Shown here piece by piece: positions 1 to 42,753 of a DNA stretch of 42,753 bases. Below the pieces are notes generated by a model. That model saw only the letters and a list, made by a program, of their open reading frames with translations. It ran no database searches and was not told where the DNA came from. Source of the DNA: a virus (lineage: Duplodnaviria > Heunggongvirae > Uroviricota > Caudoviricetes); the IMG/VR virus record IMGVR_UViG_2663763477_000009. One strand, written 5' to 3'. Position 1 is the first letter of the stretch; each line of letters starts with the position of its first letter. The position numbers were made by a program, and so were the translations under genes.

Positions 1-90
1 GATGGCATCGATCACACTCAGCAGCTGCGTGGACTTCAGGTTGTCCTTCGCTTCGCGCGGGGTATGCCCCTTACTGCTGCCTTTACCCAT
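1..90 (-). CDS. J: Tail tip / host-specificity protein (lambda gpJ-like), first 30 codons only; gene runs off the left edge
   Basis: Reverse complement of 1-90 starts with ATG and reads MGKGSSKGHTPREAKDNLKSTQLLSVIDAI, which I recognise as the N-terminus of lambda-type J proteins; lies downstream of I in the tail operon. Confidence 0.7.
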   Translation of the reverse strand, partial: MGKGSSKGHTPREAKDNLKSTQLLSVIDAI

Positions 91-105
91 TCCTCACGCT
101 CCATA

Positions 106-133
106 AACGACAAAACCGCCCGCAGGCGGTTTC
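106..133 (-). terminator. Stem-loop between I and J (possible attenuator or weak intrinsic terminator)
   Basis: 8-bp stem (aaccgcc/ggcggtt plus one A-T pair) with 4-nt loop; on the minus strand it is followed by UUUUGUCGUUUAU. Confidence 0.3.
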
Positions 134-150
134 TCATAAAACATTTTGCA

Positions 151-798
151 TCAGCGACCAATCACCACAACCTGACCACCGTCCCCTTCGTCTGCCGTGC
201 TGATCTCCTGAGAAACCACACGTGACCCCACGCGCATTTCCCCGTACAGAACAGGCAGAACATTACCCTGGGCAACCATGTTATCCAGTGACGAGAAATA
301 CGTGTTCTGTTTGCCGTTATCTGTACTGGCTGCCGTGGGCGTCCTGGCTTTCGGTGCCAGCATCTGCGCCACACCACCCAGGATCATACTGGCCCCTGCT
401 GCATACATACCCGATACAGCCGCGGCCCCCAGCCAGCCCACAGGGTTCCACCATGCCACCGCAATCAGCGCCGCACCCAGCACCGCCTGAAACACACCGC
501 CACTTTTGGCACCCGCCAGACGCGGAACGATGTGGATCACGGCACCATTTGCCAGCGGTTCATTAAGACGGGCAGATAATTCATTTTCGCCTGCATCACG
601 CCCGGCAATGCGCACCTGATACCAGCCGTCGCTCAGTTTCTGACGAAATGCCGGGAGCTGTGTGGCCAGTGCCCGGATGGCTTCGGCCCCCGTTTTCACA
701 CGAAGGTCGATGCGGCGGCCAAATCGTTGCAAATCCCCGTAAAGGCAGATGCGTGCCATGCCCGGTGACGCCAGAGGGAGTGTGTGCGTCGCTGCCAT
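151..798 (-). CDS. I: Tail assembly protein (lambda gpI-like)
   Basis: 215-aa ORF, Gly/Ala-rich hydrophobic C-terminal half; follows K in conserved lambda tail order. The true start may be an internal Met because the 5' end overlaps K. Confidence 0.75.
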   Translation of the reverse strand: MAATHTLPLASPGMARICLYGDLQRFGRRIDLRVKTGAEAIRALATQLPAFRQKLSDGWYQVRIAGRDAGENELSARLNEPLANGAVIHIVPRLAGAKSGGVFQAVLGAALIAVAWWNPVGWLGAAAVSGMYAAGASMILGGVAQMLAPKARTPTAASTDNGKQNTYFSSLDNMVAQGNVLPVLYGEMRVGSRVVSQEISTADEGDGGQVVVIGR

Positions 799-1439
799 TT
801 GTCGGTGTACCTCTCTCGTTTACTCAGTTGTTCAGGAATATGGTGCAGCAGCTCGCCGTCACCACAGTAAATGGCGGCATGATTCGGCACCGATGAACCA
901 AAACAGCACAGCAGCACATCGCCCGGCTGCGCCGCTGACAACGGCACCTGATACAGCCCTGTGGCCTCCAGATTATCCAGATAGAGATTCTGACCATTAC
1001 GCCACCAGTCGTCCTCACGATGAAAATCTGGCATCTCAATTCCCGCCAGATGGTAAGCGTCCCGGAACAGCGTGTAACAGTCCGTCACCCCGTGCTCAAA
1101 GCGCCGCCCGGTGAGATGCGGCACACAGCGGAACTTGTGAATCGCCCCGCGGCAGACCAGCCACCACGACAAATCACTCTGCACCTGCAGCCGCCGGTCG
1201 GCCTCACTCAGCCAGGGCAGACCACCGGGGTGGCTGTGGACCAGTGCCACAATCTCACCCTGCATCTCTGCCTGCAGCCAGTCCTCCGGAGCCATCCGGA
1301 AATACTCCTCCGGCTCACCGGAAATATTCACGCAGGGAAAATATCTTTCCCCCTCCGGTGTTCTCACCACGAAGCCGCACGACTCCGCTGGCGCACATCG
1401 CCGGGCGTGCGCCAGAATCGCTGATTCTGTCTCTGTCAT
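696..1439 (-). CDS. K: Tail assembly protein K (JAMM/MPN plus NlpC/P60-type domains, lambda gpK-like)
   Basis: HSHPGG JAMM-type metal-binding motif, Cys-containing hydrolase region, conserved position between L and I. Confidence 0.85.
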   Translation of the reverse strand: MTETESAILAHARRCAPAESCGFVVRTPEGERYFPCVNISGEPEEYFRMAPEDWLQAEMQGEIVALVHSHPGGLPWLSEADRRLQVQSDLSWWLVCRGAIHKFRCVPHLTGRRFEHGVTDCYTLFRDAYHLAGIEMPDFHREDDWWRNGQNLYLDNLEATGLYQVPLSAAQPGDVLLCCFGSSVPNHAAIYCGDGELLHHIPEQLSKRERYTDKWQRRTHSLWRHRAWHASAFTGICNDLAAASTFV

Positions 1440-1444
1440 GGGAT

Positions 1445-2143
1445 TTACTGCGAAAGTTTGTTAATGGAAAGGAAGCCGCCAAAGTTGCCGACGTTATTGC
1501 GAAACTTACAGCCACTCAGGCATTTGCTGCATTTATCCTTCGTGATGTCGGACGTTGGCTGGTCATATTCATCCGCGACAGCCGGACCGTGATAACCGCA
1601 CTCATCACCGCGATAGGTCCAGGTGCAGGTATTAGCAAGCATGATGCGCCCCGGAAAAACAGCGCCGTCCGTTTCCGTCGGCGTGGACAGTACAAAGGAG
1701 GCACTGACCGCGCTCAGTTCGCTGCACTGCTCAATACGCCAGCGGCTGATCACCTCCTGCTCCGGATCGGCGTCACTGTTTCCGTTGACGAAGTTCACCG
1801 CATCCAGAAAACGGGCGTAAACCTTACGCCTGACCACCGTTCCGCCGACCAGACTCTGCAGGTCTTCCGCCATCCCGGTGACCATGCCGTGCAGATTAGA
1901 GACTTTCAGCGTTGGCCTTGCACTGGCACCTTTGCCGTTCATCTCAAATCCACTCCCCTGAATGGGATAGGCCTGATACTGCCGACTCTGCCAGGTGACA
2001 GACTCTCCTTTCTCGTTCTGCTCATTGCAGAAAAAGTAGCGATCCCCGCCTACCTCGGTCAGGTCGATTTCCCAGAGCACCACGCTGGCCGACTGCTCCG
2101 CACGAATGCATTCATTCAGCGTTTCCTGTTGTATGTCCTGCAT
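1445..2143 (-). CDS. L: Minor tail protein L (lambda gpL-like)
   Basis: 232 aa, same length as lambda L; Cys cluster near the C-terminus; order M-L-K-I. Confidence 0.85.
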   Translation of the reverse strand: MQDIQQETLNECIRAEQSASVVLWEIDLTEVGGDRYFFCNEQNEKGESVTWQSRQYQAYPIQGSGFEMNGKGASARPTLKVSNLHGMVTGMAEDLQSLVGGTVVRRKVYARFLDAVNFVNGNSDADPEQEVISRWRIEQCSELSAVSASFVLSTPTETDGAVFPGRIMLANTCTWTYRGDECGYHGPAVADEYDQPTSDITKDKCSKCLSGCKFRNNVGNFGGFLSINKLSQ

Positions 2144-2481
2144 CAGATCACCACTTCGTCAAACTGACACGAAAAATCGGTATAGGTGATATGTTCTGTC
2201 GCTGACCACGTTCGACACACCACTCTGATTTTTCTGTTAATACCCGGCGGGCGCCAAAAAAAAGATTTATAGCCTTCATGCCGGGCTAAAAATTTTTCAA
2301 ATGAATCACGTTCATTCGCCTCAACTTTGAAATCACAGGTGAAAACGCGCAGAGAATGATTAAGTCCATTTGGACTTCGTTGCTCATAACCATCACCAAA
2401 TCTTACAGTTTTTATCGATGGTTTATTTTCTGTTTTCATTCCATCCTCTGGTAACCAGTGAAATTCTTCCGTATTAGCCAC
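2143..2481 (-). CDS. M: Minor tail protein M (lambda gpM-like)
   Basis: 112 aa containing a VRFGDGY motif that matches lambda M; lies immediately downstream of the tape measure gene. Confidence 0.85.
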
Positions 2482-5872: not shown

Positions 5873-6106
5873 CTACACACACTGCTCCTGAAAATACTGG
5901 TCATCCAGTGCAAAGATCACTGCTTCAAATTCATCGCGCTCAATCAATACCGGATGAGTGGCTAAATATTCATTTATCTCTGTCAGAGATAAAGGCAAAG
6001 GCACCCCAGCCATTCCAGCATAACGTCGGGCACGGGATATTACCGAATAGGCGTACAACAACTCCTTAAGCACCGGGTCTATTTCTGGTTCCGGTATCGG
6101 TGGCAA
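5873..6106 (-). CDS. T: T-like C-terminal segment of the tail assembly chaperone, expected to be made as a G-T fusion by -1 programmed frameshift
   Basis: ORF in the -1 frame relative to G, lying between G and the tape measure gene as in lambda G/G-T; the track start is a TTG and the frame stays open upstream to within about 30 nt of the G stop. Confidence 0.5.
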   Translation of the reverse strand: MPPIPEPEIDPVLKELLYAYSVISRARRYAGMAGVPLPLSLTEINEYLATHPVLIERDEFEAVIFALDDQYFQEQCV

Positions 6107-6189
6107 CCTGAGTTTTTCTCGCTTCCATCTTGCCTTTTCCCCCCTTTCTCCCCCGAACTCCGATAACCACCGCTGGGCAGCTATGGCTT

Positions 6190-6642
6190 TTATATCGTAT
6201 CCTGCTTCTGCTGCTCTTTACCCTGGGCGATGCTGGCTGCTTCTGCAAGGATCTGCCAGTACAACTCTGGATTCTGCTTAAGCAGCGCGATCCCTCGTTC
6301 TGCCGTATATTCCAGTGCAACCTCAACACCATTAACCAGTTCACCAACCCCTTTCCAGTCTTTCAGCAGATAACGAGCGGCATTATCAATGAGTAAATCA
6401 TCAACAGAATCCACCTCGGAAACCTTTGAAATATCAAACTCCTTCGTTCCGACGTGCAAACTGGCATCCATTTTCTCAATGTGGCGACGGATTAATGCAT
6501 TACGGGAGCGATACTGATCGTTATCGCTGCTTGCCACCAACAGTTTTAACCCGTCTACAGGTTTTAAGTCCTTCATTGGCGTAAACCAGCGTTCTCCACC
6601 AATGATAATTTTCTGATTAAGAATAAACATCCATAACCTCAT
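6190..6642 (-). CDS. G: Tail assembly chaperone (lambda gpG-like)
   Basis: 150-aa acidic protein directly downstream of the major tail gene and upstream of the T frame. Confidence 0.75.
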   Translation of the reverse strand: MRLWMFILNQKIIIGGERWFTPMKDLKPVDGLKLLVASSDNDQYRSRNALIRRHIEKMDASLHVGTKEFDISKVSEVDSVDDLLIDNAARYLLKDWKGVGELVNGVEVALEYTAERGIALLKQNPELYWQILAEAASIAQGKEQQKQDTI

Positions 6643-6690: not shown

Positions 6691-7653
6691 TCAACTAATC
6701 GCCTCAGCACTGGCTTTTGCGATCACGGCAGCCGGGGAATTTTTTTTTCTGGTTATCGTAGGTGCTTCATCTGCTGCGGTAATGCTCAATTGAACCTGGA
6801 TAATGTCGCTATTACCCCCATCAGGCCATTCACCTGACACCTGAACCTTCGGGAAACTGAAAGTGTATGCCCCCTCTCCATTCGAAAGCGTGAAGCTGAA
6901 CGGAACTGTTTCTCCAGTCAGTGTTTTACTCCAGATTTCCCACGCGGCTTTAGACCATGAAAGCGTCACCGTACCGGACGGTGTAAAAGTAGTCGGAATA
7001 TTTGCTCCTGCATAAGGCGAGCCAGTCCCGATACAACGCTGTGTCTGGAGTTTGTTATCGAACTGAATATCAAAACTGTCGATACAAAAACCGTTACCTC
7101 CGGCAACACCATTCAGGCTTACTGCTGAAACCTCCTTAAACGAATAACGTAGCTTTCCTGCACTATCCACAGGTTCGCCTTTGATAAAATTCGTATCATC
7201 GGCCTTTGATTCCCAGTCCAGTCCGGCAAAGGTTACGGTCGCTGTAATATCGCCGTCGTTAGGGATCTGCATTTTCCATGAGCCAACCTGCGCTCCTCTG
7301 ACGACAGAGGCAATTCCGACATCGGACGCATAGGTCGCCAGAGAAAATGTTATTCGCTCATTCCCCATTGTCAGAGAATCGCCTGACCATTCCGCGCCGA
7401 AACAGGATGCAAGAAAATCATCATGTTGACCCCAGCGAAATTTGGTACCAACATCACCGCCGACATCCACAGTGCCAGGCGTCGCCCCCTGAGCCATCCG
7501 GGAGCCACCAATCTCATTATTTTCGCCTTTATTCTGGGTGGGTTTTACTCCCCAGCTTGTGCGTTTTAATAAACTCCAGTCACCACTTGCTGGCGTAGTG
7601 CCTGCAACCGTCTCCCGGATAAATGCCGAGATAACCTTTGCACCTGAACTCAC
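6691..7653 (-). CDS. V: Major tail protein (gpV-like), apparently with a C-terminal Ig-like extension
   Basis: 320 aa with a Thr/Ser/Gly-rich beta-type composition; GTG start preceded by AGGAGG; position upstream of G/T. Confidence 0.75.
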   Translation of the reverse strand: MSSGAKVISAFIRETVAGTTPASGDWSLLKRTSWGVKPTQNKGENNEIGGSRMAQGATPGTVDVGGDVGTKFRWGQHDDFLASCFGAEWSGDSLTMGNERITFSLATYASDVGIASVVRGAQVGSWKMQIPNDGDITATVTFAGLDWESKADDTNFIKGEPVDSAGKLRYSFKEVSAVSLNGVAGGNGFCIDSFDIQFDNKLQTQRCIGTGSPYAGANIPTTFTPSGTVTLSWSKAAWEIWSKTLTGETVPFSFTLSNGEGAYTFSFPKVQVSGEWPDGGNSDIIQVQLSITAADEAPTITRKKNSPAAVIAKASAEAIS

Positions 7654-7679
7654 AGGAGCCTCCTATGTCATTAATTGCG

Positions 7680-8072
7680 CTAGAGCGCGCGATATGGAAT
7701 TTGAAGATTAAGCTGGAACCAGCCATTCTTTTCGCCAACGGCTATTGAGGAAACAGCCTGGTAACTGAGACGATCGTCATCCTGAAACTCAAACAGTTCC
7801 CGCAATTTATCGGCTGTCTCAGTAATGAGTTTTGAACCAGAACCTGCGGGGACAAATAACTGAATAATGATTATCCCCGTGCGATAAACAACCGGCCCCG
7901 CGCCAATTTCATTAACTCCAGCCTGCCCGGGAATATTACTTAACCGCGCCCAGATTAACTTACCGGAAGGATCGAACGTTGGCCCGTTCGGATACAATAC
8001 GTCTTTTCCATCAATAATCGTCTGTGCCGTCATTCTGGAAATAACCGTATTTCTGATTTCAGTAAACTTCAT
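7680..8072 (-). CDS. Tail terminator / tail-tube-proximal neck protein (putative)
   Basis: 130-aa ORF immediately upstream of the major tail gene; assigned by position in an HK97/lambda-like neck module. Confidence 0.45.
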   Translation of the reverse strand: MKFTEIRNTVISRMTAQTIIDGKDVLYPNGPTFDPSGKLIWARLSNIPGQAGVNEIGAGPVVYRTGIIIIQLFVPAGSGSKLITETADKLRELFEFQDDDRLSYQAVSSIAVGEKNGWFQLNLQIPYRAL

Positions 8073-8449
8073 TTGTAAGCCTGTAAAACACCATGAAAAG
8101 CGTTGGCATACACGCCAGTTGGCGCTTGTTGTGAATGACCGTTTTCAAGAGCCTCTGCATAAGGAAGGTTATTCTGGATATAAATAACCCCGTAATTTGC
8201 AGCTTTCGAAATAACCCCGATCCCACGCTGAACAGCAATCGTACCGTTCGGATCCACGTTATCAGATATACCAAAATCGGGATGCTGTAACGACACCAGG
8301 TTGTTATTTCTGAAACGTCCGGTATCAACCGGAGCAGCAATATCAATAGCAGTAAGAATCTGCATAGCGATGTAGCGAATCTTCAGCCCTACATCTTCCT
8401 CAATCATCCCGGCAAATATTGACGGTTCTATATCCCATGCCTTTGCCAT
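8069..8449 (-). CDS. HK97 gp10-like tail completion / neck protein (putative)
   Basis: 126 aa, overlapping stop/start with neighbours; assigned by position. Confidence 0.45.
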   Translation of the reverse strand: MAKAWDIEPSIFAGMIEEDVGLKIRYIAMQILTAIDIAAPVDTGRFRNNNLVSLQHPDFGISDNVDPNGTIAVQRGIGVISKAANYGVIYIQNNLPYAEALENGHSQQAPTGVYANAFHGVLQAYK

Positions 8450-8833
8450 TTACGCTCTCCTTAACTGGATAGAGTAAACTGATGCGGAAGGATCTACACT
8501 TGCTGTAATTACCTCGTATCGTTGTAACTGCCTTGATACAGGATCATAAATCTCAATAATATGGTCGACAGCTGGTTTATCCGTAACCTCGCATACCAGA
8601 GCGGTTAATTTAAGGTCACCATGCAAAATATTAATCCCATCAATTCTGCCCAGCTTATAACGTGTCAACACGCCTCGCCCGGTATAGATTGCGGTGGATT
8701 CGCCGCCAGTTTCCGTCACAGGATCCCAGTGCCGGTGCGTAACGTAAGAACCAGAAAAATCACTCACGGCGTCCGCTAAATCCTCATCAAAAGCAGCGGC
8801 AACCTCTGACTGAATCTCTTCACGAAGCCCCAT
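8450..8833 (-). CDS. Head-tail adaptor / head closure protein (putative)
   Basis: 127 aa, translationally coupled to neighbours; assigned by position. Confidence 0.45.
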   Translation of the reverse strand: MGLREEIQSEVAAAFDEDLADAVSDFSGSYVTHRHWDPVTETGGESTAIYTGRGVLTRYKLGRIDGINILHGDLKLTALVCEVTDKPAVDHIIEIYDPVSRQLQRYEVITASVDPSASVYSIQLRRA

Positions 8834-9228
8834 TATCCCCCCCTCACAACCCTGACTTGTGAGCGACTAAGTCCGTACGGTTTCAGCAGTGCTATCGCAA
8901 GCTGTAAATCGGGTTCAAGCAATGCAGTGCTGTTTGCTGGCAACTCAGAAAATGATTTCGATACACTGACCCCGTCAGCCGACACGGCTTTACTGATAAC
9001 AACGCCAGAATCATTTTTCTGCTGAAACAACTTACCGAATGAGGCAATTCTGGCTGCATATGCTCCCGCAAGTTTTACCTCTTCCGGAATACGGGATGGG
9101 TTAATTTTCAGGTTGAAGCCATTAAGCCAGGCATTAGCCATTAAAACAGCTTTATTTTTAGCGTTCTCACTCGTCCAGGCGTTCCCAAACGCATTATCAA
9201 CGTCATCACAGGTCACGTAAGTGATCAT
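8833..9228 (-). CDS. Head-tail connector protein (gp6-like, putative)
   Basis: 131 aa, AGGAG RBS, first gene of the neck module after the capsid gene. Confidence 0.45.
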   Translation of the reverse strand: MITYVTCDDVDNAFGNAWTSENAKNKAVLMANAWLNGFNLKINPSRIPEEVKLAGAYAARIASFGKLFQQKNDSGVVISKAVSADGVSVSKSFSELPANSTALLEPDLQLAIALLKPYGLSRSQVRVVRGG

Positions 9229-9231
9229 GTG

Positions 9232-9408
9232 TTACTCCTGAGTTTTCCAGCCCATAGCCTTCCAGTTGTCAACTTCATCAGGATGAACATTAGCGATAGT
9301 TGGTGCGCCGGGAAACATCTGATAATCGGTCACCATAACCACTAACTCAATTTGCGTTTTTTGTGCGGCTTCACGCTGTGCTCTTTGCTCTTTAGTTAAT
9401 CCGGCCAT
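9232..9408 (-). CDS. Small hypothetical protein (58 aa) between the capsid and connector genes
   Basis: ATG preceded by a G6 run; reads MAGLTKEQRAQREAAQKTQIELVVMVTDYQMFPGAPTIANVHPDEVDNWKAMGWKTQE; below the ORF-track length cutoff. Confidence 0.3.
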   Translation of the reverse strand: MAGLTKEQRAQREAAQKTQIELVVMVTDYQMFPGAPTIANVHPDEVDNWKAMGWKTQE

Positions 9409-10590: not shown

Positions 10591-10688
10591 AATTAAATAT
10601 TCCTTAAAAATTTGCGTAATTGTGAATAGATGGAGTAATGAGCTATCCAGCCCTGACACCAGCTCCCATCCGGAAGCTGACAAATGTG

Positions 10689-11453: not shown

Positions 11454-11557
11454 ATTAGTACCTGGTTTAAGTCTTCCGACAGTTACGCTGCTCACCATCC
11501 GGATCGCAGCAATAAAAAAGGCCACCCGAAGGTAGCCTGTTGTAATAAATGATTTAT

Positions 11558-29819: not shown

Positions 29820-29834
29820 GTATGACCTGCGCTA

Positions 29835-30857: not shown

Positions 30858-30995
30858 AACCTGCCTCCTTAAACTAACATACCATGAGCCAGCAATGTCC
30901 GCTATTGGCACAAAGCGGACAACCACGCTAGCTCTCCCCTGTGCCAGAAAAATGTCAATTTACATATGAACTAATGCTCTTTGATCTAGTAACGT

Positions 30996-31412: not shown

Positions 31413-31427
31413 AAGCGCCTCCGGCAA

Positions 31428-32952: not shown

Positions 32953-33771
32953 TTTCATGGTCCGTTCCCCCCTGAAGCCTGGCGGGATCGCACTGTCCGG
33001 CAACGAGACGGTGTTAACCTGTCGGAGCAACGTCTCAGGTCGAACACCTTTCGGCGCGAACAAGCCCTGGTATTCATTGGCGATGCTGTGTCGAATCACC
33101 TGCTCAGGTGAAAAACCCTGCTGGCGGAATTTTTCCAGCTCCCGTATCGCCCCGTTAGCGCCCTGCTCCGTTCGAATCGGTTTTCGCAATGCCTGGCGAA
33201 ATTCAACCCACTCACGCCAAAGCGAGACAGAAATCCAGTTCGGCAAAGCAATATCCAGAGGGTCAAACTTTTTGACACCTCGATTCCCCCGGGGGGGATT
33301 TAGGGGGGGATCTGTTTTTAGATCTTTATCTGTATCTTTATTAGTTGCCTTTGTGTTGACATCATGTTCAAACACCACTTCAACATCTGTTTGAACACCT
33401 GTTAAATTTCTCTCTTGTTTTGTTTGAACATCTGCTTCCTTTCTGCTTCTTCTGGCCTGAACAGATGCTTTTCCTGCGGCTGATTTTTTGGTTAATTTTT
33501 CCCTGACTGATGCCAGATCTTCCTCAATCCGAAGATGCACCCATTCCTCGCCGTTATCGCAAAAAAACTCCTGCAAGGATGGTTCAACATCAGCCCATCG
33601 CTCGTTAGTCAGACGGGCAATTTTTGCCAGCCTGTTTTTAGGTATTGGCTTTCCTGTTTGCCAGTAATTGAACATCAGCAACAAATACGCACCATGCTCC
33701 TCTGCTGACAAATGCATGGTGTCAGCCAGGTAATCAGCTATGTACAGTTGCATGTATGGTAATGCGGCCAT
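32953..33771 (-). CDS. ydaU: Replication initiation protein (O-like), YdaU-like; reads through into ydaV without a stop in this window
   Basis: N-terminal segment MAALPYMQLYIADYLADTMHLSAEEHGAYLLLM; iteron-like repeats inside its coding region. Confidence 0.7.
33285..33470. repeat. Putative replication origin inside the O-like gene: iteron-like repeats plus C/G homopolymer tracts
   Basis: Three or more copies of TGTTTGAACA and its complement, repeated ATCTG elements, and the tract cccccggggggg-atttag-ggggggg. Confidence 0.45.
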
Positions 33772-33834
33772 AATTGCCCCGTATGATGCTGCCCGGTGGC
33801 TTAGAATAAGCACAAACAGCATGGAAACTTTTGC

Positions 33835-34257
33835 TTAATGAACAATGACAGAATCGTCGGAAGACCCGCCGCCGCTGAAATGCGCTTTCCGGTAAACGGC
33901 TTGGACTGCATCATCATGCGCATCAATTGCCGTACTTAACGCTTCCTGCGCCGCCAGTAATGCACGGCGTTCCAGGGTATCGAAGATGCAGAGTCGGTGA
34001 CGCAGCTCGCGCGGAAGGATTGCCAGAATTGCTGGGATCAGCTTCTGAATTTTTTCTCTTTGCGTTTTCGTTTCACCTTTCAACCAACGGTGATAGATAT
34101 TCTGCTGATTATTCCAGTCCTTGCCTGGTACCAGGGGCAATTCGCCGCCCCCCTGGCGCAGATATTCTTCAGTAATGGCATTGGCTACCCATGCCTGCCC
34201 TTTTTCGGCTGCCAGGGCTAACAACACTGACTCGATGTGCTCATGCTTGATTTTCAT
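33835..34257 (-). CDS. ydaT: YdaT (cII-position protein of the Rac immunity region)
   Basis: 140 aa, matching the remembered YdaT length; directly downstream of ydaS. Confidence 0.75.
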   Translation of the reverse strand: MKIKHEHIESVLLALAAEKGQAWVANAITEEYLRQGGGELPLVPGKDWNNQQNIYHRWLKGETKTQREKIQKLIPAILAILPRELRHRLCIFDTLERRALLAAQEALSTAIDAHDDAVQAVYRKAHFSGGGSSDDSVIVH

Positions 34258-34508
34258 GAATCAACTCCCATCAGCTTTTTCGTAGTAGTTTTATTTCTGC
34301 CAATAGTTAAAATTACATCAGCAGAAAATAATCCGTTTGATGCATGAGCGATTTTTTCAGCGTAATTTGTTTCGCCGGTATATTCTGTGCGAGGCAATTT
34401 TCCGTTATCCATCCATTTGTAGATTGCTCTTTGGCTGACACCACAAACGTCGGCCACAACAGAAACGCGAACAGTTTTGATTACATCTTCAAGTGTTTTC
34501 TGGTTCAT
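34254..34508 (-). CDS. ydaS: YdaS (Cro-like HTH protein)
   Basis: HTH segment VCGVSQRAIYKWMDNG; divergent from racR; start taken as MNQKTLED (the track ORF extends further upstream). Confidence 0.7.
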   Translation of the reverse strand: MNQKTLEDVIKTVRVSVVADVCGVSQRAIYKWMDNGKLPRTEYTGETNYAEKIAHASNGLFSADVILTIGRNKTTTKKLMGVDS

Positions 34509-34569
34509 ATCACCCTCACAATGTGAACTTTGAGTACATGCTATAACAGAACTGACAGTACATTCAAGA
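34509..34569. promoter_or_regulatory. Divergent racR/ydaS promoter-operator region (OR-like)
   Basis: Two direct AGTACAT repeats about 24 bp apart (around 34534 and 34558) in the 60-80 bp between divergent repressor-like and Cro-like genes. Confidence 0.4.
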
Positions 34570-35007
34570 GTGAATATCATTGAACTTATGGTTCATGAAG
34601 ATAAAGCGCGTAAAGAGTTCGCCAGTAGGCTTGCGCTAGCCTGTGAAAACGCTGGTTATGAACAACATGGAAGGCAGGCAGAAATTGCCCGTCGAATGAA
34701 ATTAACACCAAAAGCGGTTAGCAAATGGTTTAATGGCGAAACAATTCCTCGCCGAGAGAAATTAAGGGAATTAGCAACACTCATTGGAACAACACCAACC
34801 TATCTTTTGGGAGAGGATACAGAAGAAAGTGGACAGGTACGTTTCTATCAGGAGTTAAATCCAAGACAAAAAATCATCATTGACCTTCTGGACGAGCTCC
34901 CTGACAGTGAGACAGATGAACTTTTAAAAACTCTTGAGGAGAAAAAACAGAAGTACAATGCAATTTACGAAGAGCTAGCACGAAAGAAAAAACAAAAAGC
35001 CTCTTAA
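34570..35007 (+). CDS. racR: Prophage repressor RacR (cI-like, HTH)
   Basis: HTH segment RQAEIARRMKLTPKAVSKWFNG; divergent from ydaS; the track start is a GTG and the first ATG is 18 nt further in. Confidence 0.75.
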   Translation: MNIIELMVHEDKARKEFASRLALACENAGYEQHGRQAEIARRMKLTPKAVSKWFNGETIPRREKLRELATLIGTTPTYLLGEDTEESGQVRFYQELNPRQKIIIDLLDELPDSETDELLKTLEEKKQKYNAIYEELARKKKQKAS

Positions 35008-35297: not shown

Positions 35298-35432
35298 ATG
35301 GTGCATTACGAAGTAGTTCAGTATTTGATGGATTGTTGCGGTATCACTTACAACCAGGCTGTGCAGGCTTTACGCAGCAACGACTGGGATCTCTGGCAGG
35401 CAGAAGTCGCTATACACAGCAACAAGATGTGA
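35298..35432 (+). CDS. Small Rac early protein (YdaF/YdaG family, 44 aa)
   Basis: GGGGAG RBS before the ATG; reads MVHYEVVQYLMDCCGITYNQAVQALRSNDWDLWQAEVAIHSNKM. Confidence 0.5.
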   Translation: MVHYEVVQYLMDCCGITYNQAVQALRSNDWDLWQAEVAIHSNKM

Positions 35433-35442
35433 GATTCGCAAA

Positions 35443-35598
35443 ATGCAAAAAATCGACCTCGGCAACAACGAATCCCTGGTGTGCGGCGTGTTCCCCAACC
35501 AGGATGGAACGTTCACTGCCATGACGTATACCAAAAGCAAAACATTTAAAACCGAAACTGGTGCGCGCCGATGGTTGGAGAAGCACACAGTAAGCTAA
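35443..35598 (+). CDS. Small Rac early protein (YdaF/YdaG family, 51 aa)
   Basis: Reads MQKIDLGNNESLVCGVFPNQDGTFTAMTYTKSKTFKTETGARRWLEKHTVS; below the track cutoff; convergent with sieB. Confidence 0.45.
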   Translation: MQKIDLGNNESLVCGVFPNQDGTFTAMTYTKSKTFKTETGARRWLEKHTVS

Positions 35599-36083
35599 CG
35601 ATTAAAACGTCTACTCCTGCTGTTCCAGAATAACTTCATAAAATGGGAGTATTTTTCGGTGACGAGATAATAAGAACAGTTTGCGCTATCACTCTGATGT
35701 TGAATGATGCCCTTCCGTTCTAATTTTTTCATAACCGGGTTACGGCAAGGAGAAGTGATAATAAGATTTCCTGTTTTAAGGAAATCTTTAAATACAGCGA
35801 TTTCTTTCTCAGATAAACGAAGCAATACTCGTTGCTCTGGTAGTAATGAATAATGCTTTTGAATATGTGCTCGCAATCTTGAGAAGGAAATGGCGACCAC
35901 GAAAGAAAAGGCAAAAACGATAATCTGAAAGAGCCAAGGTATTTCAGTATAAGCATTGAATGCGACAGTAAACTCTTTCGGTATCAGCCAGAGAGTGAGA
36001 CCAAAAATGATAATCGTATACATAAGTATTTCGAGTGGCTCGTTAGCAAAAAGTTTCAACAATGGAGTAAATACATCCAACAT
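35595..36083 (-). CDS. sieB: Superinfection exclusion protein B
   Basis: 162 aa from the internal Met (MLDVFTPLL...), with hydrophobic TM segments; same size and position as Rac SieB. Confidence 0.8.
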   Translation of the reverse strand: MLDVFTPLLKLFANEPLEILMYTIIIFGLTLWLIPKEFTVAFNAYTEIPWLFQIIVFAFSFVVAISFSRLRAHIQKHYSLLPEQRVLLRLSEKEIAVFKDFLKTGNLIITSPCRNPVMKKLERKGIIQHQSDSANCSYYLVTEKYSHFMKLFWNSRSRRFNR

Positions 36084-36524
36084 ATCAATAACTCTCAACT
36101 GTAAGGGTATTGAAATGTTAACACAAGCTCTCGCTGTAGGGGTATAGCCGAGACCACCGAAGCCCGGAGGTGGTGAAATAAAACCGGGCACAACACGAAG
36201 GCGCATTTCCGATATCCATAAAGAGTCGGTCTTGTCTGTTAAATTTAAATGGTGGGAGTGCGCCTCCGGTTGTAAATAACGACATTGCTGTGTGTAGTCC
36301 TGGCGGCATCAGTTTTTTTCTTGAAGTTCGGCTGATGTCCGCCCTTTTTAAAGTGAATTTTGTGATGCGGTGAATGCGGCTAAGCGCACGTGGCACAGTT
36401 AAAAGTCATGTTAGTCCTTATTGGTTTGGGTGGGAAAGCCGACTGTAATTGTTAACTGGTTGCAGTCACCTGGAGGCACCAGGCACCGCATCAACAAAGT
36501 TCATTTGTAAAAATGGAGATAATT

Positions 36525-36746
36525 ATGATTGCACATCACTTCGGAACTGATGAAATACCACGTCAGTGTGTGACTCCTGGCGATTATGTTCTTCATGAAG
36601 GCCGGACATATATTGCCTCGGCAAACAATATTAAAAAGCGAAAACTATATATTCGTAACCTGACCACAAAAACATGCATTACTGACCGCATGATTAAAGT
36701 CTTCCTCGGTCGTGATGGTTTACCTGTAAAGGCGGAGTCATGGTGA
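36525..36746 (+). CDS. kilR: Cell-division inhibitor KilR
   Basis: 73 aa reading [46 protein letters not shown]..., recognised as KilR; its TGA stop overlaps the ydaE ATG. Confidence 0.85.
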
Positions 36747-36916
36747 TGACTAAGAAAATAAAATGTGCTTACCACCTTTGCAAAAAAGACGTTGAAGAAA
36801 GCAAAGCTATTGAAAGAATGCTTCACTTCATGCACGGGATTTTATCAAAAGACGAACCGAGAAAATATTGCAGTGAAGCTTGTGCCGAAAAAGACCAGAT
36901 GGCACATGAACTTTAA
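36746..36916 (+). CDS. ydaE: YdaE (small zinc-binding protein)
   Basis: 56 aa reading [56 protein letters not shown]; below the track cutoff. Confidence 0.7.
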   Translation: MTKKIKCAYHLCKKDVEESKAIERMLHFMHGILSKDEPRKYCSEACAEKDQMAHEL

Positions 36917-36990
36917 TTAATTGACTATTCGAAACTGAATTTATGCCAGAAATGGCAGGTATTCGCTCAACCTTAATTAAGGAGAAAAAC

Positions 36991-37266
36991 ATGATTACCA
37001 ATTATGAAGCCACTGTTGTAACTACCGATGACATTGTTCACGAGGTGAATCTGGAAGGAAAGCGCATTGGCTACGTAATTAAAACAGAAAATAAAGAAAC
37101 CCCATTCACTGTGGTTGATATCGATGGTCCATCAGGCAACGTAAAAACACTTGATGAAGGTGTCAAAAAAATGTGCCTGGTGCATATCGGAAAGAATCTG
37201 CCCGCAGAAAAAAAAGCCGAATTTCTGGCAACTCTAATTGCAATGAAATTAAAAGGTGAAATCTGA
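36991..37266 (+). CDS. racC: RacC
   Basis: 91 aa from the ATG after a GGAGAAAA RBS (MITNYEATVVTTDDIVHEV...); directly upstream of recE. Confidence 0.8.
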   Translation: MITNYEATVVTTDDIVHEVNLEGKRIGYVIKTENKETPFTVVDIDGPSGNVKTLDEGVKKMCLVHIGKNLPAEKKAEFLATLIAMKLKGEI

Positions 37267-37367: not shown

Positions 37368-39968
37368 ATGAGCACAAAACCACTCTTCCTGTTACGGAAA
37401 GCGAAAAAATCATCCGGTGAACCTGACGTCGTCCTGTGGGCAAGCAACGATTTTGAATCGACCTGTGCCACTCTGGACTACCTGATCGTTAAGTCAGGTA
37501 AAAAACTGAGCAGCTATTTTAAAGCTGTTGCCACGAATTTTCCTGTCGTTAATGACCTGCCCGCTGAAGGTGAGATCGATTTTACCTGGAGTGAACGCTA
37601 TCAACTCAGCAAAGACTCCATGACATGGGAACTAAAACCGGGAGCAGCACCAGACAACGCTCACTATCAAGGCAATACCAACGTCAACGGCGAAGACATG
37701 ACTGAGATTGAGGAGAATATGCTACTCCCAATTTCTGGCCAGGAACTGCCCATTCGTTGGCTTGCTCAACACGGCAGCGAAAAACCGGTAACGCACGTTT
37801 CACGCGACGGACTCCAGGCATTACACATTGCTCGGGCTGAAGAACTACCGGCTGTTACTGCCCTGGCTGTTTCCCACAAAACCAGCCTGCTCGACCCGCT
37901 GGAAATTCGCGAACTCCACAAACTGGTTCGTGACACTGACAAAGTTTTCCCTAATCCTGGTAATTCAAACCTGGGACTGATAACTGCTTTTTTCGAAGCA
38001 TACCTGAACGCTGACTACACCGATCGAGGACTGCTGACAAAAGAGTGGATGAAGGGTAATCGTGTTTCACACATCACTCGCACGGCTTCCGGTGCTAATG
38101 CTGGCGGCGGAAACCTCACCGATCGCGGCGAAGGTTTCGTACACGATCTGACGTCACTGGCGCGGGACGTAGCCACTGGCGTACTGGCCCGTTCAATGGA
38201 TCTGGACATCTATAACCTTCATCCGGCACACGCTAAACGCATTGAGGAAATTATCGCTGAAAATAAACCGCCCTTTTCTGTTTTCCGCGACAAATTCATC
38301 ACCATGCCTGGCGGGCTGGATTATTCCCGCGCCATCGTGGTTGCGTCCGTAAAAGAAGCACCAATTGGGATCGAGGTCATCCCCGCGCACGTCACTGAAT
38401 ATCTGAACAAAGTACTGACTGAAACCGATCATGCCAACCCTGATCCGGAAATCGTGGATATTGCCTGCGGTCGCTCCTCTGCCCCGATGCCGCAGCGAGT
38501 AACAGAAGAAGGAAAACAGGATGATGAAGAAAAACCGCAACCATCTGGAACAACGGCAGTTGAACAGGGAGAGGCTGAAACAATGGAACCGGACGCAACT
38601 GAACATCATCAGGACACGCAGCCGCTGGATGCTCAGTCACAGGTAAATTCTGTTGATGCGAAATATCAGGAACTGCGGGCAGAACTCCATGAAGCCCGGA
38701 AAAACATTCCATCAAAAAATCCTGTCGATGCCGATAAATTGCTTGCTGCATCACGTGGTGAATTTGTTGACGGAATTAGCGACCCGAACGATCCGAAATG
38801 GGTAAAGGGGATCCAGACTCGCGATTGTGTGTACCAGAACCAGCCAGAAACGGAAAAAACCAGCCCGGATATGAATCAACCTGAGCCAGTAGTGCAACAG
38901 GAACCGGAAATAGCCTGCAATGCCTGCGGCCAGACTGGCGGGGATAACTGCCCTGACTGTGGTGCGGTGATGGGCGACGCAACATACCAGGAAACATTCG
39001 ATGAAGAGAGTCAGGTTGAAGCTAAGGAAAATGATCCGGAGGAAATGGAAGGCGCTGAACATCCGCACAATGAGAATGCTGGCAGCGATCCGCATCGCGA
39101 TTGCAGTGATGAAACTGGCGAAGTCGCAGATCCCGTAATCGTAGAAGACATAGAGCCAGGTATTTATTACGGAATTTCGAATGAGAATTACCACGCGGGT
39201 CCCGGTGTCAGTAAGTCTCAGCTCGATGACATTGCTGATACTCCGGCACTGTATTTGTGGCGTAAAAATGCCCCCGTGGACACCACAAAGACAAAAACGC
39301 TCGATTTAGGAACCGCTTTCCACTGCCGGGTACTTGAGCCGGAAGAATTCAGTAACCGCTTTATCGTAGCACCTGAATTTAACCGCCGGACAAACTCCGG
39401 AAAAGAAGAAGAGAAAGCGTTTCTGAGGGAATGCGCAAGCACAGGAAAAACGGTTATCACTGCCGAAGAAGGCCGGAAAATTGAACTCATGTATCAGAGC
39501 GTTATGGCTTTGCCGCTGGGGCAATGGCTTGTTGAAAGCGCCGGACACGCTGAATCATCAATTTACTGGGAAGATCCTGAAACAGCAATTTTGTGTCGGT
39601 GCCGTCCGGACAAAATTATCCCTGAATTTCACTGGATCATGGACGTGAAAACTACGGCGGATATTCAACGATTCAAAACCGCTTATTACGACTACCGCTA
39701 TCACGTTCAGGATGCATTCTACAGTGACGGTTATGAAGCACAGTTTGGAGTGCAGCCAACTTTCGTTTTTCTGGTTGCCAGCACAACTATTGAATGCGGA
39801 CGTTATCCGGTTGAAATTTTCATGATGGGCGAAGAAGCAAAACTGGCAGGTCAGCTGGAATATCACCGCAATCTGCGAACCCTGGCTGACTGCCTCAATA
39901 CCGATGAATGGCCAGCTATTAAGACGTTATCACTGCCCCGCTGGGCTAAGGAATATGCAAATGACTAA
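37368..39968 (+). CDS. recE: Exodeoxyribonuclease VIII (RecE), full length
   Basis: 866 aa with an acidic/Pro-rich linker and a C-terminal nuclease domain; its stop overlaps the recT start. Confidence 0.9.
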
Positions 39969-40770
39969 GCAACCACCAATCGCAAAAGCCGATCTGCAAA
40001 AAACTCAGGGAAACCGTGCACCAGCAGCAATTAAAAATAACGACGTGATTAGTTTTATTAACCAGCCATCAATGAAAGAGCAACTGGCAGCAGCTCTTCC
40101 ACGCCATATGACGGCTGAACGTATGATCCGTATCGCCACCACAGAAATTCGTAAAGTTCCGGCGTTAGGAAACTGTGACACTATGAGTTTTGTCAGTGCA
40201 ATCGTACAGTGTTCACAGCTCGGACTTGAGCCCGGTAGCGCCCTCGGTCATGCATATTTACTGCCTTTTGGTAATAAAAACGAAAAGAGCGGTAAAAAAA
40301 ACGTTCAGCTAATCATTGGCTATCGCGGCATGATTGATCTGGCTCGCCGTTCAGGTCAAATCGCCAGCCTGTCAGCCCGTGTTGTCCGTGAAGGTGACGA
40401 GTTTAATTTCGAATTTGGCCTTGATGAAAAGTTAATACACCGCCCAGGAGAAAACGAAGATGCCCCTGTTACCCACGTCTATGCTGTCGCAAGACTGAAA
40501 GACGGAGGTACTCAGTTTGAAGTTATGACGCGCAAACAGATTGAGCTGGTGCGCAGCCAGAGTAAAGCTGGTAATAACGGGCCGTGGGTAACTCACTGGG
40601 AAGAAATGGCAAAGAAAACGGCTATTCGTCGCCTGTTCAAATATCTGCCCGTATCAATTGAGATCCAGCGTGCAGTATCAATGGATGAAAAGGAACCACT
40701 GACAATCGATCCTGCAGATTCCTCTGTATTAACCGGGGAATACAGTGTAATCGATAATTCAGAGGAATAA
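39961..40770 (+). CDS. recT: Single-strand annealing protein RecT
   Basis: 269 aa from [14 protein letters not shown]...; recognised as RecT; the track ORF begins at an upstream alternative start. Confidence 0.9.
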
Positions 40771-40825: not shown

Positions 40826-40975
40826 ATGAGATATGACAATGTTAAACCATGTCCATTTTGTGGTTGTCCATCAGTAACGGTGAAAGCCATTTCAGGATAT
40901 TACCGAGCGAAGTGTAACGGATGCGAATCCCGAACCGGTTATGGTGGAAGTGAAAAAGAAGCACTCGAACGATGA
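40826..40975 (+). CDS. ralR: Restriction-alleviation protein RalR/Lar-like, apparently ending at a premature TGA
   Basis: Reads MRYDNVKPCPFCGCPSVTVKAISGYYRAKCNGCESRTGYGGSEKEALER then TGA; reading through that codon gives 14 more codons (NKRTTGNNNGGVHV) to a TAA, i.e. a 64-codon frame. Confidence 0.5.
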   Translation: MRYDNVKPCPFCGCPSVTVKAISGYYRAKCNGCESRTGYGGSEKEALER

Positions 40976-41012
40976 AATAAACGAACCACTGGAAATAATA
41001 ATGGAGGTGTTC

Positions 41013-41201
41013 ATGTATAAAATTACCGCCACTATTGAAAAGGAAGGTGGCACTCCTACTAACTGGACAAGATATTCAAAATCTAAACTAACGAAATCAG
41101 AATGCGAAAAAATGCTCTCAGGTAAAAAAGAAGCAGGCGTTTCCAGAGAGCAGAAAGTAAAACTGATAAATTTTAATTGCGAGAAACTTCAGTCCTCGTG
41201 A
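41013..41201 (+). CDS. ydaC: YdaC-like small protein
   Basis: GGAGG RBS 5 nt before the ATG (MYKITATIEKEGGTPTNWTRYSK...); lies between ralR and xisR. Confidence 0.6.
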   Translation: MYKITATIEKEGGTPTNWTRYSKSKLTKSECEKMLSGKKEAGVSREQKVKLINFNCEKLQSS

Positions 41202-41300
41202 ATTGCATTGTATTCAAATTAAAACTTCATAGCTGATTATTAATAATCAACATCGGGCGTCAATTTAAGTCTAACATTGGCGCCTGCCAGAGGTGATGCG

Positions 41301-41516
41301 ATGGCACAAGTAATCTTTAATGAAGAGTGGATGGTTGAATACGGCCTGATGCTTCGCACTGGTCTGGGGGCCAGACAAATTGAAGCATACCGCCAGAACT
41401 GTTGGGTGGAAGGCTTCCACTTCAAACGAGTATCTCCTTTAGGGAAGCCAGACAGTAAGCGAGGGATTATCTGGTATAACTATCCAAAGATAAATCAGTT
41501 TATCAAAGACTCATGA
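41301..41516 (+). CDS. xisR: Excisionase XisR (YdaQ)
   Basis: 71 aa from the ATG after a GAGGTGA RBS; directly upstream of, and almost abutting, the integrase gene. Confidence 0.75.
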
Positions 41517-41517
41517 T

Positions 41518-42753
41518 ATGTCTAAATTACCAACAGGTGTCGAGATTCGAGGTAAATACATTCGCATCTGGTTCATGTTTCGAGGAAAACGATGTCGGGA
41601 AACATTGAAAGGCTGGGAGGTTACTAACAGTAACATTAAAAAAGCCGGGAATTTAAGAGCGTTGATAGTTCATGAAATCAATTCCGGTGAGTTTGAGTAT
41701 TTAAGACGTTTTCCCCAGTCCAGCACTGGGGCAAAAATGGTGACAACGAGGGTCATAAAAACGTTCGGGGAGCTTTGTGATATCTGGACAAAAATTAAAG
41801 AAACAGAGTTAACAACAAACACAATGAAGAAAACGAAATCACAATTAAAAACACTCAGGATAATAATTTGTGAGAGTACTCCGATATCGCATATTCGTTA
41901 TAGCGATATCTTAAACTACCGGAATGAACTGCTGCATGGAGAAACGCTTTACCTGGATAATCCAAGATCCAACAAAAAAGGAAGAACCGTGCGCACAGTT
42001 GATAACTATATCGCCCTGCTCTGTTCGTTGTTACGTTTTGCGTATCAGTCGGGATTTATATCAACCAAACCATTTGAAGGAGTAAAGAAATTACAGAGAA
42101 ACAGAATAAAGCCTGACCCGTTATCTAAAACAGAATTCAATGCATTAATGGAAAGTGAAAAAGGACAGAGCCAGAACTTGTGGAAATTTGCCGTATACTC
42201 CGGGCTTCGTCACGGGGAACTGGCTGCTCTGGCGTGGGAGGATGTGGATTTCGAGAAGGGAGTTGTGAATGTCAGAAGAAACCTGACGATACTGGATATG
42301 TTCGGTCCCCCAAAAACAAATGCGGGGATCCGGACGGTAACACTACTGCAGCCTGCTCTTGAAGCACTGAAGGAGCAATACAAACTGACCGGGCATCATC
42401 GCAAAAGCGAAATCACTTTTTATCATCGGGAGTACGGCAGAACCGAAAAGCAAAAACTGCATTTTGTTTTCATGCCCAGAGTGTGTAACGGAAAACAGAA
42501 ACCTTATTACTCGGTAAGCAGTTTGGGTGCGAGATGGAATGCAGCAGTAAAACGTGCTGGTATTCGCCGCCGTAATCCGTACCATACGCGGCATACTTTT
42601 GCCTGCTGGCTGTTGACGGCAGGAGCGAACCCGGCGTTTATAGCCAGCCAGATGGGGCATGAAACTGCGCAGATGGTGTATGAAATTTACGGTATGTGGA
42701 TTGATGACATGAACGACGAACAGGTAGCCATGTTGAATGCGCGGTTATCGTAG
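41518..42753 (+). CDS. intR: Tyrosine integrase IntR
   Basis: 411 aa; C-terminal catalytic region with ...HTRHTFACWLL... and an H-x-x-R/Y-containing tail; terminal gene of the prophage arm. Confidence 0.9.
   Translation: MSKLPTGVEIRGKYIRIWFMFRGKRCRETLKGWEVTNSNIKKAGNLRALIVHEINSGEFEYLRRFPQSSTGAKMVTTRVIKTFGELCDIWTKIKETELTTNTMKKTKSQLKTLRIIICESTPISHIRYSDILNYRNELLHGETLYLDNPRSNKKGRTVRTVDNYIALLCSLLRFAYQSGFISTKPFEGVKKLQRNRIKPDPLSKTEFNALMESEKGQSQNLWKFAVYSGLRHGELAALAWEDVDFEKGVVNVRRNLTILDMFGPPKTNAGIRTVTLLQPALEALKEQYKLTGHHRKSEITFYHREYGRTEKQKLHFVFMPRVCNGKQKPYYSVSSLGARWNAAVKRAGIRRRNPYHTRHTFACWLLTAGANPAFIASQMGHETAQMVYEIYGMWIDDMNDEQVAMLNARLS

Follow-up and report, generated by a model that had tools for sequence, protein, structure and literature searches.

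A full-length Rac-family prophage at ttcA in a draft Escherichia coli contig and its relationship to the Rac remnant of K-12

Gene content and extent of the prophage

The window analysed here, i.e. the whole stretch of 42,753 nucleotides, corresponds to bases 3-42755 of the draft E. coli contig CXGV01000014.1 (assembly GCA_001250855.1), window position 1 being contig position 3, and matches the deposited contig with 100% identity, the one exception being base 20636, an 'N' in the deposit. Once the redundancy of a scaffold-join repeat is subtracted, it consists of about 40.7 kb of a full-length Rac-family lambdoid prophage at ttcA (Table 1). All genes from the small terminase through gpI are present and open, as judged from profile assignments and comparison with the prophage of strain NCTC10444.

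Table 1. Features of the window, with positions counted from its first base
Feature	Coordinates	Strand	Basis or remark
gpJ (tail tip), first 30 codons	1..90	-	translation matches the NCTC10444 gpJ N-terminus; cut by contig/window end
Distal tail I, K (C40 peptidase), L, M, lambda-type	151..2481	-	phrog_32, 30, 18, 14; lengths as in NCTC10444
Tape measure protein, 1077 aa	2474..5707	-	phrog_24
Tail assembly chaperone G (ydaY, 150 aa) and open -1 frame T-like extension to 5873	5873..6642	-	phrog_313
Tail tube (Big2 domain), tail terminator, Neck1, Hc1 head closure, Ad1 adaptor, 58-aa protein	6691..9408	-	phrog_290, 179, 169, 161, 493, 1514
P22-type major capsid, scaffold (DUF6651), Mu-F-like head morphogenesis	9451..12670	-	phrog_283, 784/206, 241; RefSeq names
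Portal (DUF4055), large terminase, small terminase	12654..16439	-	phrog_145, 2/10250, 51
TAGT-family glycosyltransferase (310 aa), ParB_N-domain protein (262 aa)	16630..18343	-	PF20691, E 3.7e-34; PF02195
trkG potassium transporter, complete, 485 aa	18481..19938	-	99.2% identity to K-12; PF02386
Repeat copy 1, 2,097 bp	18540..20636	.	position 20636 'N' in deposited contig
Repeat copy 2	20637..22733	.	truncated trkG; Rz/Rz1 allele identical to NCTC10444
Lysis: 71-aa holin essD, 165-aa endolysin rrrD, Rz with embedded Rz1	22173..23346	-	PF04971, PF00959, PF03245
Two lipoproteins, TolA C-terminal domain	23598..24572	-	PF06519; lipobox sequences; moron slot between Q and holin
Late-promoter region: STnc100 sRNA match 24683-24869; terminator-like hairpin 25189-25170; promoter-like 25246-25217	24683..25246	-	consensus scans only
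Q-like antiterminator (DUF1133), YbcO nuclease-like (DUF1364), DUF1367/NinB-like	25617..27045	-	phrog_753
Low-GC (0.376) cargo island	27046..30995	.	
Cargo island: TehB-like gene	27859..28197	+	
Cargo island: two genes, function not assigned	28818..29819, 29835..30857	-	
Ren-like DUF977 protein, DUF1627 protein	30996..32189	-	phrog_142, phrog_630
ydaU (DUF1376 initiator-like) and ydaV (DnaC-like loader), one 536-aa frame	32212..33822	-	ydaU stop lost
Immunity region: ydaT (CII-like, -), 84-aa Cro-like HTH (-), 139-aa DicA-like repressor (34588-35007, +)	33835..35007		
ydaG, ydaF, sieB (-); kilR, ydaE, racC	35298..37266		98.7% identity to K-12; proteins identical to NCTC10444
recE (866 aa), recT (269 aa)	37368..40770	+	full length, collinear with K-12
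ralR toxin (+), RalA antitoxin sRNA (41019-41197, -), DUF1187 gene	40826..41201		RalA: Rfam RF02694, 225 bits
xisR excisionase, intR integrase	41301..42753	+	within a block 98.7% identical to K-12

The lysis genes essD, rrrD and Rz/Rz1 are identical to those of NCTC10444 and lie downstream of the Q-like gene, as expected of a lambdoid phage; the rrrD endolysin has a hydrophobic N-terminus. The assignment of the Q-like protein itself is at threshold (PF06530, 26.1 bits against a cut-off of 26 bits). No canonical slippery heptamer for a G/GT frameshift was identified by eye, a sequence search against the PDB with the TAGT, Q-like and capsid proteins returned nothing significant, and PADLOC and NCBIfam assigned no defence system to the low-GC cargo genes, sieB, the TolA-like genes or ralR.

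The window is bounded by the intR stop codon on one side and by a cut within J on the other. Most of J, the lom gene, the tail fibre genes stf and tfa, and both att sites fall outside it; the end of the contig accounts for the lack of the tail tip, fibres and att sites. Beyond the window, the source contig continues 3' of intR into ttcA with the att core TTGTTCAGGTTGTATTGTTCTTTCTT, so that attL lies in the contig flank, while attR is on another contig of the draft assembly. An earlier note on this DNA, made from the sequence alone, had taken the window to be an apparently intact prophage, a reading not supported by a stretch that is less than the whole prophage, with J cut after 30 codons and the fibres and att sites absent.

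Relationship to the K-12 Rac element

Carrying out the whole-prophage alignment proposed in that note, we found that K-12 Rac (NC_000913.3 1411899-1434958) matches the window in five collinear blocks of 98.1-99.8% nucleotide identity, with no break in collinearity. Among these, the blocks 18090-20520 and 4773-6532 are 99.2% and 99.8% identical, respectively. The shared genes, in conserved order, comprise on the ttcA side intR/xisR, ralR/RalA, recET, racC, ydaE, kilR, sieB and ydaF/G, and further ydaT/U/V, trkG and rzoR. Thus, the Rac genes that the earlier note recognised (recE, recT, kilR, sieB, ydaT/U/V, intR, trkG and Rz/Rz1) are borne out, but racR and ydaS, which it also listed, are not; racC, ydaE/F/G, ralR and xisR likewise show 98-99.8% nucleotide identity in the K-12 order. 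Membership in the Rac family is indicated by the integration module with its ttcA site, the RecE/RecT arm and collinearity with the late remnants of K-12, namely rzpR/rzoR, trkG, ynaK, ydaY and ynaA.

Three stretches of the window are absent from K-12: 22618-31739, with late regulation and lysis, 6533-18089, with packaging, head and proximal tail, and 1-4772, with the distal tail. The junctions of the blocks are sharp and fall inside K-12 ydaW/rzpR, ynaK/ydaY and ynaA/lomR, and what K-12 retains as ydaW, rzpR, ynaK, ydaY and ynaA are pieces of genes found complete in the window: ydaW is the N-terminal part of the DUF1627 protein (K-12 match beginning at window position 31740), ynaK a part of the ParB_N-domain protein (match beginning at 18090), and ynaA the first ~311 codons of the tape measure gene (match stopping at 4773). 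The structural module (terminase, portal, head, connector and lambda-type tail genes) and the lysis cassette (holin, endolysin and spanins), which had been proposed as additions relative to K-12, are indeed both present, and K-12 has at most fragments of either. K-12 Rac further differs in an IS5 insertion in lomR and in carrying racR/ydaS, where the window instead has the DicA-like repressor and an unrelated Cro-like gene. K-12 Rac is best read as a member of this lineage that has undergone three losses and had its repressor/Cro pair exchanged.

The ParB_N/TAGT pair lies directly upstream of the terminase. With its TAGT-family ('TET-associated') glycosyltransferase, the pair might be a DNA-modification module of the Rac phage lineage, with K-12 ynaK as its relic; we consider this unlikely, and weigh it separately from the question of whether the repeat and gene fusion described below are real. 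If true, this would be a case of a temperate lambdoid coliphage glycosylating its own DNA with no TET or 5-methylcytosine pathway visible.

Immunity region and inducibility

Within the immunity region, window positions 34264-35131 have no DNA match in K-12. In BLASTP comparisons the repressor aligns with RacR at 36% identity over only 33 aa, and the Cro-like protein gives nothing significant against YdaS (E = 0.028). From these comparisons, the region is predicted to be heteroimmune to K-12 Rac.

In profile searches the DicA-like repressor shows an HTH_3 domain alone, with no S24 (LexA-type) peptidase domain, and a scan of the window for the LexA box CTGT-N8-ACAG gave 0 matches; neither type of SOS-responsive switch, i.e. 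a RecA-cleavable repressor or a LexA-controlled antirepressor, was found. Since the repressor lacks the peptidase domain and the window a LexA box, induction by mitomycin C would not be expected and is doubtful for this prophage. The published record on comparable phages includes Sp10, whose repressor also lacks a peptidase domain and which is not mitomycin-inducible (PMC2669165), and KingRac, for which weak induction by mitomycin C was reported (PMC6731689).

Close relatives and known Rac-like phages

The nearest complete genome is that of NCTC10444 (NZ_LR134092.1 ~2711392-2763910), whose ttcA prophage is 99.9% identical over the whole window, the differences amounting to 43 substitutions, an intergenic indel of 1 bp and the repeat. 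The 50 coding sequences that can be compared are all open, and the encoded proteins match exactly or differ by 1-3 residues. Hence the intactness claimed for the genes stands as far as the comparable in-window genes are concerned, which are open and of full length, but not for the replication genes, which are fused. NCTC10444 lacks the 2,097-bp repeat, has ydaU and ydaV as separate genes, and its ParB-like ynaK gene, intact in the window, is interrupted by a nonsense mutation. NCTC10444 further displays the parts that fall outside the window, i.e. J, lom, tail fibre, tfaR, sitABCD and attR, the att core recurring 52.5 kb away, and its prophage is already annotated gene by gene in RefSeq. The structural half of the prophage, taken as at least 80% of window positions 1-25000, occurs in at least 670 of the 5,426 complete E. 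coli genomes. For the structural and lysis genes, pN/pS against a relative of 98.7% identity is about 0.19.

Full-size or transmissible Rac-like phages have been published (PMC5917428; PMC6731689; PMC2669165). KingRac (Frazao et al. 2019, PMC6731689) is a Rac-related phage of 46,834 bp at ttcA with head and tail genes, which produced particles and replaced K-12 Rac upon lysogenisation; its likeness to the window is judged from the published description. Sp10 (CP-933R) of E. coli O157:H7 (Asadulghani et al. 2009, PMC2669165) is Rac-like, located at ttcA, and has intact RecET, a DnaC-type loader and all morphogenesis genes; it excises spontaneously and transfers to K-12 at low frequency. It too is likened to the window by description, and its head gene organisation may differ. 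An O157:H7 Z869 prophage that shares the ydaU-3' allele with the window was considered and set aside, as it lies beside yebY and has another integrase and a lambda-type head; as it is not Sp10, it cannot tie the Sp10 experiments to the phage type of the window. The LT-IIa-encoding Rac-like prophage Rac-SA53 (KU052037.1) shares the intR/xis/recET/kilR arm, the ttcA attachment site and the order of Q, YbcO and DUF1367 with the window, matching 47% of positions 25001-42753 at 92% identity, but has other lysis and structural modules, toxin morons and no trkG. The 'phage' records ON4705xx that match the window proved to be prophages predicted in silico, with host flanks, and not virion sequences.

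A tandem repeat and a gene fusion in the draft sequence

Two features of the window look unusual. One is the tandem repeat, which yields second copies of Rz/Rz1 and trkG and on which the earlier note is silent. The second trkG (20584-22035) spans the repeat junction and lacks its last 19 codons. Exact look-up of the truncated TrkG protein retrieved no record because the gene caller picked another start; the presence of the repeat in the deposited contig was confirmed via the copy-1 Rz protein. The two copies differ at 7 positions. All of these fall in the 443-bp Rz/rrrD part, a sequence with paralogues in other prophages, and none in the 1,654 bp made up of trkG and spacer. The other feature is the fusion of ydaU and ydaV, in which a single private T>G change at window position 32967 turns the ydaU stop TAA into GAA; both the YdaU and YdaV domains are intact within the resulting protein.

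Taken at face value, these features would describe a true tandem duplication, with a second Rz/Rz1 and a TrkG altered at its C-terminus, and a single-chain YdaU-YdaV in a structurally altered, possibly replication-defective prophage. In keeping with this, both are part of the deposited contig, the copy-1 sequence of Rz is a natural allele found in four contigs, and of the five substitutions that cluster near the ydaU stop, four belong to a natural allele patch. However, the repeat junction occurs in none of the 5,426 complete genomes searched, falls on the N of the deposit and coincides with a 39-N scaffold gap in a sister assembly from which the repeat is missing; it does not lie in continuous sequence, as the novel junction of a genuine duplication would. 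The loss of the ydaU stop, for its part, depends on a single private base in a draft assembly. This base sits where a G5 run ends, the kind of context in which Illumina errors typically arise, and among 441 homologue matches no natural ydaU-ydaV fusion was found, the best matches covering at most 60% of the query. We thus regard it as very unlikely that both anomalies are real: the repeat is most likely a scaffolding or assembly artefact (scaffold-join redundancy), the stop loss could be a base-calling error, and together they look like draft-assembly flaws. With the one at a scaffold join and the other at a single private base, biological interpretation should await reads; were the stop loss genuine, replication may be impaired.

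Interpretation and significance

The whole is best explained as a draft-contig copy of a full-length Rac-family prophage at ttcA, a reading to which we assign a probability of roughly 0.85. Gene content, gene order, integrity and the relationship to K-12 are observed directly, while regulation and the ability to make particles are predicted by homology. IntR and XisR would integrate and excise the phage at ttcA, and the DicA-like repressor would be opposed by the Cro-like protein and CII-like YdaT. One early operon would express kilR, recET and ralR, and another the YdaU/YdaV replication genes, the nin-type genes and the Q-like antiterminator. The latter is predicted to switch on a late operon running from the TolA-like lipoproteins through the holin, endolysin, spanins, trkG and the ParB-like/glycosyltransferase pair to the terminase, the P22-type head and the lambda-type tail.

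How active such an element is can be judged in different ways. The earlier note saw a fully intact Rac relative that would excise, lyse and form particles upon mitomycin C treatment. The open in-window genes and the low pN/pS agree with this, as does KingRac, which made particles after mitomycin C and lysogenised K-12 (PMC6731689). However, the 139-aa repressor without an S24 domain, the fused replication genes and the truncation of the window at the tail tip, fibres and att sites speak against it, as do the weak induction of KingRac and the non-inducibility of Sp10, whose K-12 lysogens yielded no visible particles (PMC2669165); we consider it unlikely. A somewhat better, still tentative, possibility is that of a resident prophage retained for its cargo (here trkG, recET, kilR/sieB, ralR and, in relatives, sitABCD) that no longer completes a lytic cycle despite its open frames. 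Its presence at the same locus with at least 99% identity in many strains, the lack of an SOS-responsive repressor and the particle-free Sp10 lysogens would fit, but about 20 kb of virion genes are still open with mostly synonymous change, and related Rac-like phages do transfer.

Full-length Rac relatives have already been described and annotated, and the prophage of the window is an ordinary one. It adds little biology: complete genomes with annotated full-length Rac-type prophages number in the hundreds, and studies of KingRac, Sp10 and the LT-II phages have already addressed their activity. What the base-by-base alignment provides is a view of which three losses, together with an immunity swap, turned such a phage into K-12 Rac, and thereby an account of the K-12 gene fragments ydaW, rzpR, ynaK, ydaY and ynaA.

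Relationship to the K-12 Rac prophage

Alignment with K-12 Rac (BLASTN), a check proposed in the earlier note, yields five collinear blocks and three K-12 losses, bearing out its reading of a Rac early arm joined to structural and lysis modules that K-12 lacks. The K-12 genes ydaW, rzpR, ynaK, ydaY and ynaA are therefore fragments that border the three loss junctions.

Features of the window, with BLASTN identity to K-12 Rac where aligned
Feature	Position	Strand	Remarks
Absent from K-12 Rac: all sequence below 4773	1-4772
ydaY and first third of tape measure gene	4773-6532		99.8%
Absent from K-12 Rac: tail tube to terminase, glycosyltransferase, most of ParB-like gene	6533-18089
ParB_N-domain (262 aa) and TAGT (310 aa) proteins	16630-18343	-	Between trkG and terminase
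Part of Rz, Rz1, trkG, start of ynaK	18090-20520; repeat 20637-22617		99.2%
Tandem repeat, copies 1 and 2	18540-20636; 20637-22733
Absent from K-12 Rac: start of Rz, endolysin, holin, two TolA-like genes, Q, nin-type genes, cargo island, DUF977, most of DUF1627	22618-31739
Two lipoproteins with TolA C-terminal domains	23598-24572	-	Moron slot between Q and holin
STnc100 sRNA match (Rfam, 86.6 bits)	within 24683-25246	-	Downstream of Q-like gene
Promoter-like site	25246-25217		Just upstream of STnc100 match
Terminator hairpin	25189-25170		Just upstream of STnc100 match
Cargo island	27046-30995		GC 0.376; opposite-strand TehB-like gene and adjacent unknown gene pair
ydaT, ydaU, ydaV, start of DUF1627/ydaW	31740-34263		98.1%
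66-bp patch	32963-33028		Four synonymous or spacer substitutions
ydaU stop TAA to GAA	32967
Immunity segment	34264-35131		No K-12 DNA match
ydaG to intR	35132-42753		98.7%
NCTC10444 (L001, NZ_LR134092.1): att core repeat beyond sitABCD	locus 240-4871		Outside the window

Gene content and integrity

Genes were identified with PHROGs, Pfam and the RefSeq annotation of E. coli NCTC10444, the nearest complete genome. The packaging and head genes encode small and large terminase, portal, a Mu-F-like head morphogenesis protein, scaffold and a P22-type capsid protein, and are accompanied by adaptor, head-closure, neck and tail-terminator proteins. The tail genes comprise a Big2-bearing tail tube, the chaperone G (ydaY), which has an extension open in the -1 frame, the tape measure protein, and lambda-type M, L, K and I. 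Upstream of the lysis cassette lies a Q-like antiterminator (DUF1133, phrog_753); the cassette itself encodes a holin of 71 aa, a 165-aa endolysin whose N-terminus is hydrophobic, and Rz, within which Rz1 is embedded.

Over the range of the window NCTC10444 has 50 annotated CDS, and every one is open here; most are identical and the others differ by 1-3 residues. To that extent the element is apparently intact, as first read by eye; the window begins two bases from the contig end, 30 codons into the tail tip gene gpJ, and ydaU and ydaV are fused as written. The ParB-like ynaK is whole (262 aa), while in NCTC10444 it has a nonsense mutation at window position 17812 and is annotated as a pseudogene. 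Comparison with ON470595, a predicted prophage 98.7% identical to the window, gives 83 synonymous and 54 non-synonymous changes across the structural and lysis genes (pN/pS 0.19), which is weak evidence that they have been under purifying selection.

The window matches positions 3-42755 of the draft contig CXGV01000014.1 (assembly GCA_001250855.1, 54,203 bp) at 100% identity, the sole mismatch being base 20636, an N in the deposit. It ends at the intR stop codon, and the contig continues into ttcA and the Rac att core. The differences between the window and NCTC10444 amount to 43 substitutions, a single intergenic 1-bp indel and the 2,097-bp repeat; in NCTC10444 the att core is repeated 52.5 kb away, and the element also carries J, lom, a tail fibre gene, tfaR and sitABCD, all outside the window. 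As the att core repeat lies beyond sitABCD, these iron/manganese transporter genes are inside a Rac-type prophage, downstream of tfaR in the place that pinR and ynaE occupy in K-12.

Prevalence and known relatives

Full-sized Rac-like prophages have been explicitly described (PMC5917428; PMC4632033), RefSeq genomes carry annotations for each gene of the present element, and at least 80% of window 1-25000 and of 25001-42753 occurs in at least 670 and in 124 of 5,426 complete genomes, respectively. Thus, the full-length Rac prophage is already known, both in kind and in sequence. One relative, Rac-SA53, has the early arm in common with the window but differs in its late modules. Matching "phage" records were considered as virion sequences and rejected, being in-silico prophage predictions.

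Anomalies of probable assembly origin

The unusual details of the window, a tandem repeat and a ydaU-ydaV fusion, are probably assembly flaws. As written, the minus strand reads holin, endolysin, Rz/Rz1 and TrkG without its last 19 residues, then 97 nt from the endolysin 3' end, another Rz/Rz1 that carries three amino-acid changes, and a complete TrkG. The seven positions at which the two copies differ all lie in the 443 bp of Rz/endolysin sequence, of which other lambdoid prophages carry paralogues; the 1,654 bp covering trkG and the spacer are identical. The junction base is N in the deposited contig, indicating that a scaffolder made the join; in the sister assembly GCA_001248625.1 the corresponding site in the endolysin 3' end is a gap of 39 N, and there is no repeat; and the junction is absent from all 5,426 complete E. 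coli genomes. Together, these four observations favour an assembly artefact, and a genuine tandem duplication, as the contig is written, appears improbable. The allele adjoining trkG in the sister assembly is that of copy 1.

The loss of the ydaU stop yields a single 536-aa protein in which YdaU (DUF1376) and the DnaC-like YdaV are joined by three linker residues; this frame is also present in the deposited contig. The change, private to the window, is a T>G that closes a stretch of five G, a context typical of Illumina errors; none of 441 database matches is a fused homologue, and the sister assembly has ydaV called as a separate gene (248 aa). The fusion reflects either a miscalled base or a singleton lesion whose effect is uncertain. 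Four nearby substitutions also occur in an allele of other lambdoid prophages and hence form a natural recombination patch; it matches the ydaU/ydaV allele of an O157:H7 lambdoid prophage that is unrelated and sits beside yebY, indicating a short recombination tract between prophages.

Accessory genes and the late-promoter region

The TAGT ("TET-associated glycosyltransferase") assignment rests on PF20691 (E 3.7e-34), and its ParB-like neighbour is the full-length counterpart of K-12 ynaK. No TET or cytosine methyltransferase was found in the window. The pair may serve the Rac lineage as a DNA-modification module. The two TolA-like lipoproteins have lipoboxes IIGC and VAGC; one gene is annotated as a tolA pseudogene in RefSeq, yet possesses a start codon and a signal sequence of its own. 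These lipoproteins could hinder the Tol-dependent entry of colicins or filamentous phages. The layout around the STnc100 match resembles the lambda PR'/tR' late-promoter region.

Of the proteins encoded by the cargo pair, the 333-aa one weakly matches GNAT and the 340-aa one has a weak HEPN/RES N-terminal match; the genes of the island have no PADLOC or NCBIfam matches. ON470595 carries kinase, FtsH-like and S8 peptidase genes in the corresponding position, marking it as a variable cargo slot.

Mode of life and immunity

From homology we infer a lambdoid temperate phage, which would integrate at ttcA via IntR/XisR, be controlled by a repressor/Cro/CII-like switch and express two divergent early operons and a Q-dependent late operon of moron, lysis, packaging, head and tail genes. 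The repressor lacks an S24 peptidase domain, like that of the published relative Sp10, and no LexA box occurs in the window. Sp10 of O157 Sakai, in which every morphogenesis gene is present and the repressor is peptidase-less, is not mitomycin-inducible, though it excises spontaneously and is transferred to K-12 at low frequency (PMC2669165). KingRac is only weakly induced, yet forms particles and lysogenised K-12 in the mouse gut (PMC6731689). From its repressor type, mitomycin C would be expected to raise excision and protected phage DNA little or not at all, and the mitomycin test suggested in the earlier note is therefore a poor discriminator for this prophage.

The earlier note had also placed racR and ydaS here, which the immunity segment contradicts. 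Its 139-aa repressor is 36% identical to RacR over only 33 residues and is DicA-like, and the 84-aa Cro-like protein has no match to YdaS. The phage would be heteroimmune to K-12 Rac.
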